From the NCBI GenBank assembly GCA_051888595.1, contig JBJFBU010000004.1, forward strand, positions 1 to 30,577: a DNA stretch of 30,577 nucleotides, given 5' to 3'. Shown piece by piece: positions 1-18,101 of the stretch. The DNA is from Candidatus Gastranaerophilaceae bacterium (GTDB lineage: Bacteria > Cyanobacteriota > Vampirovibrionia > Gastranaerophilales > Gastranaerophilaceae). Within the stretch, counting starts at the first letter, position 1. Each line of letters opens with the position of its first letter. The position numbers were made by a program, and so were the translations under genes. The notes under the pieces were generated by a model. That model was not told the DNA's origin and ran no database searches. It saw only the letters and a program-made list of their open reading frames with translations.

Positions 1-278
1 GTCCACTATATATGAAAGTATATAGAATGAACTCCTTTAATTGCTGGAAGTCCCTTAGAGCATATATGCTACAGCATAAATATGAAATATGATTAAGTGC
101 GAAAGTTGAAAATATATATGATTGGGTAATCAGCAGGGAAGCTCCGAATAGGAGAACCTTCAACGACCATTGACTGAAATGTCAATAGAAACAAGCGTTT
201 CGAAATGGGGAGAACCTAAGTTTTATATTTATAAAATATGGTTAAGATATGGTCTACTCTTGTAAGAAATTTACAAGA
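1..278 (+). ncRNA. Group I ribozyme catalytic core
   Basis: P2 ctatatat-GAAA-gtatatag (6-25). P4 tgctg 42-46 / cagca 131-135. P6a ctcc-gaata-ggag. P7 gacca 165-169 / tggtc 250-254 (compensatory change versus the usual GACTA/TAGTC). Two hairpins between P7 and P3' (attgac..gtcaat; gaaac..gtttc). P3 ctcc../..ggag. P8 aacc..ggtt. P9 tcttgtaa/ttacaaga 258-278. Confidence 0.9.
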
Positions 279-324
279 AAATATATTAACAACTTTATTA
301 ATATTATAAAAAAGGAGGTGTAAT

Positions 325-1263
325 ATGTTAAAAGATACCTTAATTAAAATAGATTTGAATAAAAATCATGCAAGAAATAGGTATAAAAATATGGGATATG
401 ATGTATCAAATGATATAATATATGTCAACGTCAACGACTTACCTAAAAATTCTAAAGAAATAATAAATGTCGTCTGTGATTATTGTGGGAGAGAATACAC
501 TACTACCTACCAAATATATAATATGATAATTAATAAGTCTAACCCAAAATGTGCTTGTTCAGACTGTATTAATATTAAAAAGAGGGAAACAAATATATTA
601 AAATTTTCTACGGAATACGCCTCTCAAAATGAAGAAATTAAATTAAAGGTAAAAAATACTGTATTAAATAAATATGGCGTAGATAATATATCAAAATTGG
701 CTGAAATAAAAAATAAAAAAATAGAAACTTCAATTAGTCATTTTGGGGTTGAATATCCAATGCAAAATAAGGATATATTAAATAAACAGATACAGACTAA
801 CATGACAAAGTATGGATGTCAATATCAAGTATGCAGACTGGATAACAAAGACGAAAGAGTTGCTAATATTAGGAAGTCTTTGTTTAATAATCGCTCTGTA
901 ATTTCTAGTAAGGCACAACGTTATGTCTGTAGTTTGTATAACGGGATTTTAAATTATCCTTTTGACAAGTATAATTTAGATATATTATTGAATGATAACA
1001 TTGTGATAGAATATAATGGTAGTGGACATAATATACCTGTTAAGAGACATATAATGACAGAGGAAGATTTTAATAAAAAGGAAGAAATAAGACATCGTAC
1101 TTTAATTAATAATGGTTTTAAGGTTATATATTTTGATAATTTAAGTGACAAATTACCAGACGATAATACTTTATTGGAAATTAAAAATTATTGTTTACAA
1201 TATCTTCAAAACCATTCTACAATAAGAGTTAATTTAGACGATTATTTAAAAGAAAGTTGTTAA
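325..1263 (+). CDS. Intron-encoded homing endonuclease: N-terminal Zn-binding motif, three short repeats, C-terminal Vsr/DUF559-like (EDxHD-type) nuclease domain
   Basis: Strong RBS aaggaggtg. CDYCG...CACSDC. Repeats TVLNKYGVDNIS / TSISHFGVEYPM / TNMTKYGCQYQV. Nuclease-like LDILL..IVIEYNGSGH..GFKVIYF. Located inside the intron. Confidence 0.8.
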   Translation: MLKDTLIKIDLNKNHARNRYKNMGYDVSNDIIYVNVNDLPKNSKEIINVVCDYCGREYTTTYQIYNMIINKSNPKCACSDCINIKKRETNILKFSTEYASQNEEIKLKVKNTVLNKYGVDNISKLAEIKNKKIETSISHFGVEYPMQNKDILNKQIQTNMTKYGCQYQVCRLDNKDERVANIRKSLFNNRSVISSKAQRYVCSLYNGILNYPFDKYNLDILLNDNIVIEYNGSGHNIPVKRHIMTEEDFNKKEEIRHRTLINNGFKVIYFDNLSDKLPDDNTLLEIKNYCLQYLQNHSTIRVNLDDYLKESC

Positions 1264-1305
1264 TATATCTTATACAAAGTAGCGAATTGTATAAGTAATA
1301 TAAGG

Positions 1306-1452
1306 TTTAAGCATTTTAGTGAAGAGAAAAACTTAAAAGAAAAAAGTGATTATGCGGACAGACTTAGAGAAAAAGCTAGTCAGGATATGGTTAATTATGG
1401 CTTATCCCATACACCTTTTGAAGAATGGGCGGTGGGTAATTATGGATTATAA
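1306..1452 (+). CDS. 3' exon (48 aa, FKHFSEEKNLKEKSDYADRLREKASQDMVNYGLSHTPFEEWAVGNYGL) of an intron-split virion gene, probably a head-tail connector/adaptor; not in the ORF track
   Basis: Open frame with no start codon or RBS, beginning right after the predicted omega-G. Its stop overlaps the next gene's start, as in a coupled operon. The product call rests on position and my recollection of a DFKx(Y/F)S motif in such proteins. Confidence 0.7.
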   Translation, partial: FKHFSEEKNLKEKSDYADRLREKASQDMVNYGLSHTPFEEWAVGNYGL

Positions 1453-1753
1453 AGTTGAACTTAATAAAGAAGATTTAAATAAATATTTAGATAGATTAGT
1501 AAATAAAATATTTGCAATTTTAGGCATATATGAAGATTGTGACGAAAAAAAAACATATGATGATTTTTTTATATATTTAGATAGATTATGTCTTGAAATT
1601 AAAGGATGCCAATATTCTTTAGAAATAGAAAATTTTTTATCTTTGTATAATGTTTTATTAGGTATATCTCGTTCTGAAATAATGGAGCATAAAAAAATCA
1701 AATCATTAGTTTTTTATTGTATTTCTGTTGTAAAAAAAATGAAGGTGGTTTAA
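1442..1753 (+). CDS. Hypothetical protein in the neck region (true start likely ATG 1442, MDYKVELNK, not 1346)
   Basis: SD-like gcggtggg upstream of ATG 1442. The longer 1346 start overlaps the 3' exon in another frame. Confidence 0.75.
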   Translation: MDYKVELNKEDLNKYLDRLVNKIFAILGIYEDCDEKKTYDDFFIYLDRLCLEIKGCQYSLEIENFLSLYNVLLGISRSEIMEHKKIKSLVFYCISVVKKMKVV

Positions 1754-3003
1754 TGGCATATTTTGATAGTTTTATGTCAATTATAAAATCACCAAGAGAA
1801 GTTTATAAACAACAACAACAGGAAGTTATTAATAACTTGTTTGAAAATGCGCCAACTTATTATGAAGATGTTAAAGAAGAAGACAGTTTTGGAACTCTTA
1901 CATTTCACAAAATTAATGTCAGAGTAAATAATTTGGTTGATGCTAAAACAGGACAAAGAGTTAATGATGATTTTAAAAAGCTTATTTTTGAAGATGTAAA
2001 TTATATGCCACCATTAGGGACTAGATATTATTTTAATAATAATATATGGATAGTATTTTCAACTGATAACGTAAAAACCGATACAGCAAGTGTCTATGTT
2101 AGAAGATGTAATAATACTTTAAATACCCAAGATGAGTATGGTAATATTCATCAAGAACCTTGTTATATTGATTATAGTCTCACTGAGACACAAATTTTTA
2201 AAGAATATTCTATTGATATAGCCAGAGGAAGAATAGAAGTTGGTTGTCAACTTAATCAGTATACAAAGAATATAAATATTAATGATAGGTTTATATTTGG
2301 TGATGATGCTTATAAAGTCAGAATCAGAACTAAATTTGATAGGAGAAACACTTTTGATAATAACACAAATATGTTTTTAAAATTGCAATTAGATTATGAT
2401 AATATCGCAGAAGATGATAATTTAGAATTTCAAATTGCAAATTATAAAAATTATAACTATGTTTTTGAAACAGAGACTGAAATTACAGGTATTATAAATA
2501 ATACTGGTAAAATATCGCCAAGAATATTACTAAACGGTACTGTTATGAGTGATTTGAGTGTTATATGGCACACTACTAATGAAAATGTTATTATTATAAA
2601 TGAATCTTCTGGTGAATATAAAATGGTTGGAATAGGAGAATGTGAGATAGTTTGTACTTTATTAGAAAATACTTCGATATCACATTCTATATCTGTAAAG
2701 GTAACTGAACAACCAGAACACGATATTGTTTATAACAAAATATTACCAAATATTAGTTATATTAAATTAAATAGTCAGCAAGAATATGTTGTTAATGAAT
2801 ATACCAACAACAATATCACAGATACTAAATTTGATATTAAATTTTATAATGTACCAAAAAGAAATTACAGTGTTTTAGTTGATGGAAATAAATTTGTAAT
2901 AAAAAATTTAAGAACGACAGAAGAACCTCTTTGTGTAATATGCACTAATTTAAGAGATGACTCAACTGTTGAGTTTTATGTAGAATTGGGGGGATTATTT
3001 TAA
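1753..3003 (+). CDS. Probable head-closure/neck protein with C-terminal Ig-like domain(s) (start likely ATG 1753, MAYFDSF)
   Basis: RBS aaggtggt and TAATG stop/start overlap. Big_2-like segment SVIWHTTNENVIIINESSGEYKMVGIGECEIVCT. Position between connector and tail genes. Confidence 0.6.
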   Translation: MAYFDSFMSIIKSPREVYKQQQQEVINNLFENAPTYYEDVKEEDSFGTLTFHKINVRVNNLVDAKTGQRVNDDFKKLIFEDVNYMPPLGTRYYFNNNIWIVFSTDNVKTDTASVYVRRCNNTLNTQDEYGNIHQEPCYIDYSLTETQIFKEYSIDIARGRIEVGCQLNQYTKNININDRFIFGDDAYKVRIRTKFDRRNTFDNNTNMFLKLQLDYDNIAEDDNLEFQIANYKNYNYVFETETEITGIINNTGKISPRILLNGTVMSDLSVIWHTTNENVIIINESSGEYKMVGIGECEIVCTLLENTSISHSISVKVTEQPEHDIVYNKILPNISYIKLNSQQEYVVNEYTNNNITDTKFDIKFYNVPKRNYSVLVDGNKFVIKNLRTTEEPLCVICTNLRDDSTVEFYVELGGLF

Positions 3004-16400: not shown

Positions 16401-18101
16401 GAAACAGCTAAAAATTACAATGTTAAAATTATAGAAGAGCAGATTGATGCTTTAGAAAAACAAAAAGAAGAAGAATCTAAACAATACGAAGAAAGAATTA
16501 AACAAATACAAGAACAATTAAATTTATTAGACGAAGAAGAAACAAAACGTGATAAAATTCTTGATTTAGAAGAAAAGCAACTTGCTCTAGCCAAAGCAAG
16601 TTCTCAAAAAACAGTCCAAATTTATAGAGAGGGCATTGGCTTTGTGTGGGAATCTGACCCTGACGAATTAAGAAATGCTCAAAAAGATTATAACGACACA
16701 AAACGAGATTATGAGAAATGGAAACTTGAACAACAATTAAATGACGAAATTGATGCCTTACAAAATGCCAAAGAAGCCGTTGAAGATAGTTTTGATGCCC
16801 AAATAGATAAATTAAATGAGTTAAAAGATAAATGGGAAGATGTATTAGATATATCAGACGAGGTTGATGGATTAACAAAAGAGCTTAAAAGAATGTTATT
16901 AAATGGCGAAATGTCTTTTGATGACATGAGCGATATTCTTGATGAGTTTACACAATCTTATTTAGATGACCTTGATGAAATAGAAAATAGGACAGAAAAC
17001 GTATTTAAAAAATCCCCCATAGAGCAAGAAAATATCTCTAATACAGGAAAAACTTGGTATGTAAACAAAAATGGTCAAGCACCTTCACAAGCTGATATTG
17101 GTGACAAAATAATAACAACCAATGGTATATATCAAATAGTTGCACCAAATACACAAGGAGCAAGTTATAATCCAGAAACAAAAAGATGGAGTAAACAATT
17201 AACCGATGTTAAACAAGTTATTTCTGATAGTCAATGGGGAACAGAAGTTCTTACAAAGAACGTAAAAATAAATTCTGATTATTTAGATGCAAATACTGAT
17301 TCTAATATAGATTTAGATAAAAGTGTGTCTAAAAACTCTAATACTGTTGGTAATAATACATATTCTAACAATAGATTGAAATCAAGCATAGACGACCTAA
17401 ATGATACGATACAAAACACAGACTTTGTTATTGGTTCTGGTGATAGTAGTTCTAGCGGTAGTGGTAGTTCTAGCGGTAGTGGTAGTTCTAGTAGTGGTTC
17501 TAGTGGTAGTTCTAGTAGTGGTTCTAGTAGTACTTCGTCTGTTCAAAAATATATTGATAGACTTCCAGAAGATGCTCCTTATAGAGAAGACCCTAATAAT
17601 TTATTACCCTCAACACAAGATGTGGCAATATATGAAATAACAAAATATCTTTCAAAAATATATGCTGAACAAGGTGAAGCTGAATACGAAAATATAAGAA
17701 CAACGTATAATAAAATATGGGCTGGAATAAATACATTTGCAACTGGTACATATAGTTCGCCAAAAGGATTAGCACTAATAGACGAAGAGGGTGCAGAGCT
17801 GACAGTCAGACCTAATTCACAAGGACGTTTAGATTATTTAGGATTAGGCACTGGTATTGTTCCTGCTGATTTAACAAAAAAAATAATAGATATAGCAACT
17901 AATCCATATCAGTTCTTTGAGGATGAGTTCGGAAAAATAACTCAAAGATATGGTACTTACAATATGGTAAACACACAACAGCCTGTACAAATTAATATAG
18001 GTGATATTCAATTGTATGGAGTGCAAGACACTGATAGACTTTCGAAGGCTATCATTAGTAATCTTCCCAATAAAATAATTAAAGATTTATATCGAAGATA
18101 A
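10413..18101 (+). CDS. Tail tape measure protein (TP901-type core), 2562 aa
   Basis: RBS aaggaggtg with TTG start. Core LDTAMTNMRMVTG..AKTLGVTTRSVAEGSLEWLRQG..TELMTATLNGFNM..IVDKLVKVDMDYATSAGEIATAL. Long coiled coils. C-terminal FATGT..GLALIDEEGAEL motif. Confidence 0.95.
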   Translation: MAYSKKNFDIAITFATQVNDSNLLNQLQKIEKEVNKAQKAIKLDVTDKNAVDNLNKYSKQFDLLFSTISEGSKKIENLQKRFNVLGQSLPNVGKNLNIDKYLDKAEKKIEKLEASINVVRERANALNIDLPEIQAGQDINQYIKDANKMLNLQEKINDAIDIYRKKYEDIGETMPLYDTSKTLKENKKLWDSNIASIERYIKSQNLVQTAVGDKVTISDADRGLSIAENVTKWTNEIRSAIGGLATVNINANQWRVYEVEVTRALTGLGVQIKTFTDNGVTEIRKLSDAGRDLAQTYINLSRTTSDGIASFFRGIDIQDEASVLQAFSDAIGSTQLTAYTEPQNLLGRETLKMNIFDGVRDQVNEANEIIKQFNEELVRQGSTTIEEAQNIAEQFGMKFNLGQVVVDEQGRIHQSFELIKGDIKAMGNISSYIDEETGIRGLSIGSSTTIAKDNSLYSEYNKLKSENLKLTQEIEAAERAGQTNRQSYLQAELDANRQKIQDIRDQVQAYQGLGEVQSRVSRELDRIDAEIAQSEQRYQLDKQDIANSEAIDRLLVSYNKLNQAKLEVYRTTQSSTSTDEQKARAQEYLTEAQQEYLSILKQTNPELLNNKKYVDGVASSDEKLQEEQNKVNKSIREAQSNFKTLGQRILDTAKNVLTYRIAWQALQKIGQGITESVELVHELDTAMTNMRMVTGQTKDEAIDTIDTYSKLAKTLGVTTRSVAEGSLEWLRQGNSIEETAKLLESSTKLSTLGMLDSTEATELMTATLNGFNMTADQSEDIVDKLVKVDMDYATSAGEIATALQYTAASAGLANVSLDEMIGMVTVVSSTTRRSAESIGQSFKTIFSRLQNVAAGKELDEEGEALNDVEKALNRVGIATRDSIDKWRDASDIFDEVGSKWKTMSDTARSQVATALGGTRQRENLIVLFENWDKVRQATEESTNAAGTAEKKYSIYLESIDAKINQFTATWEQLVNNLNQSGTFAGIVELGTHILSLVDKLHLVEIAVGGAVAGFALFGGAKVLGNIDKVTQSVNNLYTTIKTIPANIGKAFYNIEQLQTTVKGIFTNIGTGSFKGIQSLISTLKGKNLSGVGSVFTKGISESNIQGLETLKKYTDDYVKETAENLKNAKDNWQEMFDAVSKGATVTKSGLVASDTALKVAEDAVTQAQLANTIATEAQTIATNQLYLAKFKLYAGEILLATGIILATKALYDFFEVTEKEHWDAFSDAKDSANETEQSISSLNDELETTASRIKELEEKKDLSLTEVNELADLKQKNKLLEQQIDLAERLLKTQQETAAKEAMDALTDMNDYESVNKEIGEDAKVNLTGSIKEHIDLLNQYKEQITEIENQMANPDISIAEYNKLKKSHEELTNTLNEESTSTNDLISKALEYKSALSENIPEQKQQIDIIDNLVDSYLLATDAVGYFNNKIEDIGSLDIDTTEYINAVNDLINDLISTSQGHDILKEMGFNEDAIKDMQDNFEGFLAGTLDDEEVEQFFEKLKELIKDKVVGVKVNLEPEQTSVDTALTSIEGTEKKVKSLKGAFDDLSDSGAISAATIKDIRSEFGNLSNIEEYTDKLMDANLSTSKLKQITVDMMNDYIDEEKILDGLTGKQQEYMLSVLKSAGYTISNSANLQANTKAKVDNWVATKDLSKVSGDDLVKALNLSGQEAIYAKLEFFKLQSQMIATSNQKMNFSQQMSALKDLATQAGLTSAQISGIFNGTFAVDQTSIRQEMQATGKSYEEVVNILYGNRLKAIQNTVTNNTPTVTGYTPPSSSSGSSKSSDDAVKKAFEAELKALDHDYEMGYISRREYYDKLKALDAKYYKGNAKYLEEHNSNLEKMRDLQEQIYNDNQDALDVQIEILEAQGNKEEEIIALLQQKKENAHGWAEALRAAGVTEDSEMIKNAQADYRDISEEIKQYQKDIVDNAIEQKEKESDYLEAVGKLELQTELEINKEKLDIINEYAKKGYLTEEEYMEQWIDLVNERKEVLQSMYETAKNYNVKIIEEQIDALEKQKEEESKQYEERIKQIQEQLNLLDEEETKRDKILDLEEKQLALAKASSQKTVQIYREGIGFVWESDPDELRNAQKDYNDTKRDYEKWKLEQQLNDEIDALQNAKEAVEDSFDAQIDKLNELKDKWEDVLDISDEVDGLTKELKRMLLNGEMSFDDMSDILDEFTQSYLDDLDEIENRTENVFKKSPIEQENISNTGKTWYVNKNGQAPSQADIGDKIITTNGIYQIVAPNTQGASYNPETKRWSKQLTDVKQVISDSQWGTEVLTKNVKINSDYLDANTDSNIDLDKSVSKNSNTVGNNTYSNNRLKSSIDDLNDTIQNTDFVIGSGDSSSSGSGSSSGSGSSSSGSSGSSSSGSSSTSSVQKYIDRLPEDAPYREDPNNLLPSTQDVAIYEITKYLSKIYAEQGEAEYENIRTTYNKIWAGINTFATGTYSSPKGLALIDEEGAELTVRPNSQGRLDYLGLGTGIVPADLTKKIIDIATNPYQFFEDEFGKITQRYGTYNMVNTQQPVQINIGDIQLYGVQDTDRLSKAIISNLPNKIIKDLYRR
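17433..17540 (+). repeat. Ser/Gly low-complexity tandem repeat within the tape measure
   Basis: agttctagcggtagtggt twice plus degenerate agttctagtagtggt units, encoding GSGDSSSSGSGSSSGSGSSSSGSSGSSSSGSSSTSS. Confidence 0.95.

Follow-up and report, generated by a model that had tools for sequence, protein, structure and literature searches.

A group I intron with its own endonuclease gene splits a virion-module gene, probably for a head-to-tail adaptor, in an SPbeta-like phage of the pig gut

The stretch of DNA analyzed here (hereafter the window; 30,577 nt) is the whole of contig C4 (JBJFBU010000004.1) of a metagenome-assembled genome (MAG) deposited as a Candidatus Gastranaerophilaceae bacterium (GCA_051888595.1), a fragmented 1.2-Mb assembly of 125 contigs, and it belongs to an SPbeta-like siphophage of the pig gut whose virion module holds a gene split by a group I intron. 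The contig starts inside this intron, its first base being intron base 18 of 1322, and runs on through the ribozyme core, an intron-borne endonuclease gene, the second exon (exon 2) of the split gene and the genes that follow (Table 1). An initial annotation, made from the letters of the window, had described the ribozyme core, a compensatory change in helix P7, P9 hairpins, a terminal G at 1305 and a 48-amino acid (aa) frame lacking a start codon, and all of these features are present in the sequence. We interpret the locus, with high confidence, as a 1322-nt intron of subgroup IA type that divides a 152-aa virion gene, encodes a Vsr/EDxHD-like endonuclease and splices, with the host protein probably being a head-to-tail adaptor.

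Covariance-model searches identified the ribozyme. Searching positions 1-1500 returned the Rfam model RF00028 (Intron_gpI) at window 1-276 on the plus strand (54.5 bits, E 1.1e-12, flagged as 5'-truncated), and the complete copy of the intron, on a 37.8-kb Logan contig, L003 (SRR30616792), matched the whole model (positions 1-253) over L003 5652-5952 at 58.5 bits (E 6.9e-14), such that both copies exceed the gathering score of 50 bits and the element is a group I intron, as had been proposed. To this we added an alignment of five introns found at the same site in other loci (L007, L008, L019, L023 and L024), from which RNAalifold recovered P2 through P9 with compensatory changes in 25 of the 58 pairs, while pair tables revealed two to four pair types in each of P3, P4, P6, P6a, P7.1, P7.2 and P8. 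P7 reads GACCA/UGGUC in the window as against GACUA/UAGUC in the Rfam consensus and three relatives, a compensatory change in which pair C168-G251 is C-G in two aligned introns and U-A in three. The hairpin close to the intron's 3' end persists in L008 by way of a C-G to U-A double change, and a terminal hairpin of different sequence occurs in L021 (another same-site intron) and L019 as well. P7.1 and P7.2, the extra helices that separate P7 from the 3' strand of P3, mark the intron as being of the subgroup IA type. A check of the window for the J8/7-P7 motif gave one exact match, the intron's own (244-255), and one match with a single mismatch at 17945, with no convincing second copy.

The part of the locus that precedes the window was read from L003, which encodes the exact protein of the intron's open reading frame (ORF) and differs from the window by 1 mismatch over 1500 aligned nt. 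L003 supplies exon 1 as a 104-codon ORF with the end ...AAC GAC AAT GAT, followed by an in-frame TGA as the first intron codon, CTCGTGAGAGTTAA, and then window base 1. Because L003 passes from exon 1 through 17 nt directly to window base 1, the window is short of only these 17 intron bases (TGACTCGTGAGAGTTAA), and the complete intron corresponds to L003 5660-6981. Searching the window's own 125-contig assembly revealed neither exon 1 encoded elsewhere nor contig ends overlapping the window start. A 2346-nt Logan contig (L004) and the MAG contig begin at the identical base within the intron, and the two may come from one sample; the assembly break at this base could reflect co-occurring phage lineages that have the intron in common and differ in exon 1.

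Intron-less alleles fix the boundaries of the insertion. Searching with exon 1 recovered P0001, a continuous 152-aa protein that is 99% identical over exon 1 and reads ...NWALNDND|FKHFSEEKNL..., with the junction at D104|F105, and the pig-gut contigs carrying the P0001 DNA (L005/L006) read ...AATGAT|TTTAAACAT... with no insertion. Removing the intron, which is inserted between the Asp104 and Phe105 codons, restores the frame of these intron-less alleles and joins exon 1 (104 aa) to exon 2 (48 aa) in a 152-aa protein that differs from P0001 at two residues. The junction that the initial annotation had predicted, GAT|TTT AAG CAT (D-F-K-H-F-S), proved exact in both DNA and protein (L003, P0001). 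Its claim that a longer gene had been split was likewise borne out, as the 48-aa frame forms the C-terminus of the 152-aa intron-less allele and of continuous ORFs of 149-183 aa, aligning end to end with the C-termini of those in MT835481.1 (183 aa; junction ...TD|FRRES) and Enterocloster phage PMBT24 (149 aa; junction ...TD|FKHY). With T as the first base of both the intron and exon 2, a one-base shift of the boundary would be conceivable; the boundary is nonetheless unique, since only the position given here places the exon U opposite G1 and ends the intron in G. Upstream, the exon-2 frame stays open as far as the stop at 1261-1263, with no ATG, GTG or TTG between that stop and 1306, and exon 2 was missed by the gene callers, as had been remarked. 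Its overlap with the ATG of the next gene (1442) is found in intron-less loci too. The endonuclease ORF and exon 2 lie in one frame, apart by one stop and 14 sense codons, which is probably chance (1 in 3).

The pairing at the 5' splice site was in part foreseen. The initial annotation had taken positions 1-6 as the 3' strand of P1 and expected an exon ending in ...TGGAT. L003 instead reads ...CAATGAT, and pairing with the exon is restricted to G1-U2-C3, which pair with GAU and include the U.G wobble that had been called correctly at G1, with C4-A5-C6 unpaired with the exon; with CAAU preceding GAU in the exon, we reject the extended P1. Exon 1 ends in GAU ahead of every same-site insertion read, and GAU/GUC together with U(+1)-A is invariant in the five aligned introns. 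The 17 bases that lie off the contig form a GNRA-capped P1 extension hairpin (GACUC-GUGA-GAGUU) stacked on P1. We adopted this hairpin over the covariance model's own P1 (intron GACU with AGUC), since L008 breaks the GACU/AGUC pairing yet keeps the hairpin, with a GAAA loop.

Evidence that bears on splicing comes from exon 2, which is open and conserved in all intron-bearing lineages with a full exon-2 read. L003 and L007 differ over exon 2 by 13 synonymous and 3 non-synonymous codons, with 15 of the 18 base differences at third positions, and L007 and L023 by 20 synonymous and 11 non-synonymous codons, a pattern indicating that exon 2 evolves under purifying selection between intron-bearing genomes. 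Only joined and translated exons make sense of this coding pattern, and from it we infer, indirectly, that the intron splices.

Nucleotide differences between alleles also cluster at the insertion site. Comparing L003 with L005/L006 gives 13 differences over the 200 nt around the junction, of which 7 fall no more than 30 nt from it (Fisher p = 0.001), and all seven are synonymous third positions (1311, 1320 and 1326 on the window side). This cluster could be a co-conversion tract left by homing, or it could represent variation in the endonuclease target site. The window allele's synonymous markers are C at -7 and -10 and G at +6, with T at +15 and G at +21 as further markers of this allele; C at -7 was ruled out as a marker of intron-bearing alleles, the base being T in L019 and L023.

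Evaluating the intron ORF product for family and fold signatures, we found matches to Pfam DUF7487 (1.4e-13) and to phrog_12131 'homing endonuclease' (9e-37), along with more than 400 relatives, one of which is named 'very-short-patch-repair endonuclease' by its source. From N- to C-terminus it has a Cys4 zinc ribbon, the helical repeats of DUF7487 and a Vsr-like nuclease domain (~191-307), and residues C51, C54, C78, C81, D219, E229 and H235 are invariant over 35 homologues. In the AlphaFold2 model (predicted local distance difference test, pLDDT, 93.3), residues 191-307 superpose on Vsr (1cw0, Z 10.6; 1vsr, Z 10.2) and on the catalytic domain of I-Bth0305I (3r3p, Z 9.4, 91/97 residues). The spacing of D219-N231-H235, taken from the window protein itself, is close to that of D196-N208-H213 in I-Bth0305I, a comparison that covers the upstream Asp and the His of EDxHD together with an Asn. 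These model-based similarities suggest that the ORF encodes a Vsr-like, EDxHD-related homing endonuclease; we keep the label there, short of proven membership in the EDxHD family, because the protein has no sequence match to I-Bth0305I and a different N-terminal architecture. The DUF7487 family thereby gains a likely role, that of a Vsr-like homing endonuclease.

Table 1. Features of the split gene and its intron in the window, followed by introns at the same site in other loci.
Feature	Location	Strand	Length	Basis or remark
Group I intron	1..1305	+		bases 18-1322 of 1322; RF00028; boundaries fixed by intron-less alleles L005/L006
Internal guide sequence GUC (3' strand of P1)	1..3	+		pairs with exon-1 end GAU; G1.U(-1) wobble
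Ribozyme core	6..276	+		covariance-model alignment, RNAalifold, pair tables
P2	6-13/18-25	+		GAAA loop
P3	32-37/207-212	+		sequence and alignment
P4	42-47/130-135	+		sequence and alignment
P5	52-54/124-126	+		long P5 insert
P6/P6a	136-159	+		sequence and alignment
P7	165-169/250-254	+		guanosine-binding helix
P7.1	170-185	+		hairpin with covarying pairs
P7.2	188-201	+		hairpin with covarying pairs
P8	213-243	+		sequence and alignment
P9	260-276	+		loop GAAAU, beginning GAAA
Shine-Dalgarno AGGAGG of intron ORF	313..318	+		read from sequence; 6 nt upstream of ATG at 325
Homing endonuclease gene (putative)	325..1263	+	312 aa	downstream of P9, outside catalytic core
3'-terminal hairpin (P9.x)	1269-1277/1287-1295	+	9 bp	after endonuclease stop, before G1305
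Terminal (omega) G	1305	+		3' splice site 1305|1306; from intron-less allele comparison
Exon 2	1306..1452	+	48 codons + stop	residues 105-152 of 152-aa protein; tblastn, homologues
Next gene (phrog_5523, yomY position)	1442..1753	+	103 aa	ORF list, PHROGs; overlaps exon 2 by 11 nt
Same-site intron, L007 (SRR27143251)	1728-2109		382 nt	window's core; ORF cleanly removed (window about 316-1256)
Same-site intron, L018 (ERZ1026856)		-		contig ends within intron; ORF internally deleted; exon 1 joined to intron
Same-site intron, L008 (ERR3179202)			364 nt	no ORF; contig ends within exon 2
Same-site intron, L019			365 nt	no ORF
Same-site introns, L023 / L024			291 / 281 nt	no ORF
Same-site intron, L021			1230 nt	317-aa DUF7487 endonuclease gene

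Insertions after the same GAT were found in 8 loci, with host proteins down to about 45-48% identical, and several family representatives break off just past that Asp, with unrelated sequence following. Each same-site copy with a readable 3' end shows G and then TT(T/C)AA(A/G)CAT. Against RF00028, L023 scores 62.8 bits and L008 51.7 bits, and L019 and L021 were not reported by the model in a 14-kb multi-locus scan. The endonuclease of L021 is probably P0022, a 46%-identical homologue. The endonuclease-less core of L007 looks like a decay stage of the homing cycle, judging from its sequence, and this one site offers a natural series of states (intron-less, with endonuclease, with a decayed endonuclease, and with no ORF) that lends itself to work on how introns and endonucleases turn over in gut phages. 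Exact-pattern scans of the viral-contig collection for the 5' junction and for P4 gave no matches, and no split copies were seen among the cultured-phage homologues of the host gene. In one further contig, L022, an unrelated-looking insertion (550-635) follows the same Asp codon, starts TATAATACACAACAATAACGG and is cut by the contig end 86 nt in.

To assign a function to the host protein we relied on its predicted fold and on gene position. Its sole family match is phrog_3853, of unassigned function, and it belongs to no named connector family such as Pfam Phage_connect_1. Modeling P0001 with AlphaFold2 from 83 sequences gave a helical model (pLDDT 84, predicted template modeling score 0.76), and when this was aligned with VIA-align to 48,161 chains most of its first 24 matches came from phage tail, neck or connector assemblies, spanning host-protein residues about 2-149. 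These top entries (Z 9.7-6.1) include Pa223, KHP30, Moo19, A4, SU10, Carin1, GP4, DEV, 812, P1, Sf6 gp7, VP1, crAss001, P22 gp4, Milano, Mu and HK97 gp6, with all except Sf6 gp7, P22 gp4, Mu and HK97 gp6 judged by entry titles alone. We take Sf6 gp7, P22 gp4, Mu gp36 (the neck subunit) and HK97 gp6 to be head-to-tail adaptors, and the host protein resembles them in predicted helical fold, in size and in lying between capsid and tube genes; unlike them, it is a phrog_3853 protein without a match to Phage_connect_1 or any other sequence match. SPP1 gp15, also a head-to-tail adaptor, was not seen among the VIA-align matches.

The gene order at the locus is YonB (capsid position), one gene, the split gene, the 103-aa gene, YomX, YomW, YomV and YomU_Tube, so that the split gene lies between the capsid-position and tail-tube genes, and the Pfam names of its neighbors (YonD_N, YonB, YomX_C, YomW, YomV_2nd, YomU_Tube) describe an SPbeta-like structural module. 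From these neighboring names, on which the label depends entirely, the split gene would sit at the yomZ position. A literature search on SPbeta YomU/YomV structure returned nothing useful. Large siphophages of Firmicutes (Tsamsa-like Bacillus, Staphylococcus 'SPbeta-like', Lactococcus and Enterocloster phages) carry homologues of the host protein, and a few of these homologues, some in Bacillus phages, are labelled 'putative structural protein'. The enrichment of fold matches and the gene position make a head-to-tail adaptor the best reading of this protein, one that we consider quite likely and that backs, on the strength of a structural model, the initial guess of a neck gene. By the same reasoning, phrog_3853 gains a likely role as a head-to-tail adaptor.

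Taken as a mechanism, these features suggest that folding of the late transcript would pair GAU, at the end of exon 1, with the intron's GUC guide, including the U.G wobble, whereupon guanosine would attack after the terminal U of exon 1. The freed exon 1 would then attack after G1305, joining ...AAT GAT to TTT AAG... and restoring the 152-aa frame. The resulting protein would most likely dock on the portal as a head-to-tail adaptor, and if it does so, complete virions should depend on splicing. In mixed infections the endonuclease presumably cuts intron-less alleles near the insertion site, with the intron being copied in.

Several observations weigh against parts of this interpretation, and they bear on three rival explanations. 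Whole-window (30.6 kb) Rfam scans, at the gathering threshold and at E <= 0.05, gave no intron match, which we attribute to a filter effect, since the speed filters lose this AT-rich intron, with its large inserts, in anything but a search of a short stretch; full-length Rfam scans could likewise overlook further AT-rich introns of such contigs. P1 comprises just 3 exon base pairs plus U-A. The initial annotation had further looked for a guide segment complementary to TTTAAG, and a P10 of UUAA/UUAA is indeed possible in the window intron, but it is not conserved in the relatives L008 and L023. Among contigs from four metatranscriptome runs, compared over window 1-3000, the ligated-exon joint is absent and one contig crosses the 3' splice site unspliced (1169-1397). 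The same libraries gave short contigs over the intron core (1-246, 138-302 and 53-203) and one contig (run X17) of the endonuclease-less form, with 311 joined to 1257, and window 1400-3000 is otherwise little covered; these contigs show neither splicing nor transcription nor accumulation of the excised intron, and we read them as neither supporting nor refuting splicing. The short P1, the lack of spliced RNA among these contigs and the origin of the window in a fragmented MAG would all fit an intron that is present but has lost splicing, leaving the gene split and dead, as a remnant in a phage that is defective or in a piece of prophage. That account seems very improbable to us, given that L003, L007 and L018, as independent assemblies, share an essentially identical core with every conserved helix kept, that codon changes in exon 2 between intron-bearing alleles are mostly synonymous as described above, and that the remainder of the structural module is intact. 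A split that arose as an assembly artefact, through chimeric joining of an intron fragment to an unrelated structural module, could draw on the contig beginning inside the intron and on the absence of exon 1 from the MAG; it is already contradicted by independent contigs and its likelihood is close to nil, as separate-sample assemblies (L003, L007, L008, L019 and L023/L024) have the order exon 1, intron, exon 2 and L018 independently has exon 1 joined to the intron.

As to the functional labels, searching the PDB by sequence yielded no meaningful match to either the host protein or the endonuclease, and the endonuclease has no sequence-level counterpart in I-Bth0305I. The host protein matches no Pfam family at E <= 0.1, as assessed with two full-length homologues, P0001 carries no precomputed Pfam domain, Foldseek of the host-protein model against the PDB returned no match at E <= 0.001, AlphaFold DB clusters held only unnamed proteins, and helical models can reach Z 8-13 by chance in VIA-align. 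Together with phrog_3853 as the only family match, these results leave some room for the intron being right and the 'neck gene' label wrong, the host then being another small helical protein of head completion or assembly. We regard that as unlikely, in view of the predominance of tail, neck and connector chains among the top VIA-align matches over nearly the whole protein, the location of the gene, which precedes the tube gene and lies two genes past the one at the capsid position, and the 'putative structural protein' labels of some Bacillus phage homologues.

Because one codon junction is kept across SPbeta-like gut phage lineages, with repeated gain and loss of the endonuclease, we also considered whether the intron is more than a passenger, serving in competition between co-infecting phages or as a splicing gate on head-tail joining, a proposal that we hold to be distinctly unlikely. 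In its competition version the endonuclease would cut the adaptor gene of a rival, with co-conversion of flanking markers. On the proposal as a whole, the near-junction synonymous cluster would be a footprint of recent homing.

As for what the finding changes, automatic gene calling yields a 104-aa stub and loses the 48-aa exon, so that an essential-looking virion protein is mis-annotated both here and in about a dozen related protein clusters. The result is a sound annotation correction together with an in silico confirmation of the predicted junction, and it leaves existing knowledge of how group I introns work unchanged.

The element itself is of a familiar kind, with a host gene that is less usual. 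Phage introns of subgroup IA with an ORF outside the core are found in T4 td, nrdB and nrdD and in SPbeta bnrdE/F. The window intron is like these in its Intron_gpI core with P7.1/P7.2, its U.G 5' splice site and terminal G, the in-frame stop right after the 5' splice site, and an endonuclease ORF with its own Shine-Dalgarno sequence lying peripherally, downstream of the core. It differs from them in that its host gene is adaptor-like and not a nucleotide-metabolism or polymerase gene, its endonuclease is Vsr-like and not of the GIY-YIG or HNH type, and its splicing is predicted.

Comparison with introns in late genes tempers the novelty of the host. Introns in capsid and tail genes of Cluster J mycobacteriophages, confirmed by reverse transcription PCR, and in the Tuc2009 capsid gene have been described (PMC3706429). 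They share with the window a group I-type intron in a late structural gene, an exon-final U and intron-final G, recognition against intron-less relatives, and an endonuclease in some copies only; the window differs in its SPbeta-like low-GC gut lineage, its adaptor-like host and its endonuclease family, and its site is occupied across lineages as divergent in host protein as noted above. The initial annotation had presented a small head-tail connector as a less familiar host, which holds insofar as an adaptor-type gene is less usual and a literature search found no published report of a group I intron in one; it was overstated, and the host class is less unusual than implied, since such introns had been reported before in capsid and tail genes of phages (PMC3706429).

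Two further systems come close in other respects. Streptococcus thermophilus phages have a lysin-gene intron with deletion derivatives (Foley et al. 2000, as cited in PMC8541194) that, to the extent that the citing article describes it, resembles the present case in being widespread at one site in a full form and ORF-less derivatives, and differs in host gene and in that the window's derivatives (L007, L018, L008) are inferred from metagenome contigs only. I-Bth0305I, the prototype of the EDxHD homing endonucleases, is encoded in a group I intron of a Bacillus phage recA gene (PMC3239194, PDB 3R3P). The window enzyme is likewise encoded in an intron of a Firmicute phage and has a predicted C-terminal domain that superposes on it, whereas its N-terminus carries the Cys4 zinc ribbon and DUF7487 repeats in place of NUMOD/HTH. 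Across the phage collection, introns 72-83% identical to the P3-P6 core lie, in cultured phages, under major capsid protein features (Bacillus phage SP-15) and under tail tape measure protein features (Lactococcus phages AM1-AM8), from which it appears that related introns occupy other structural genes.

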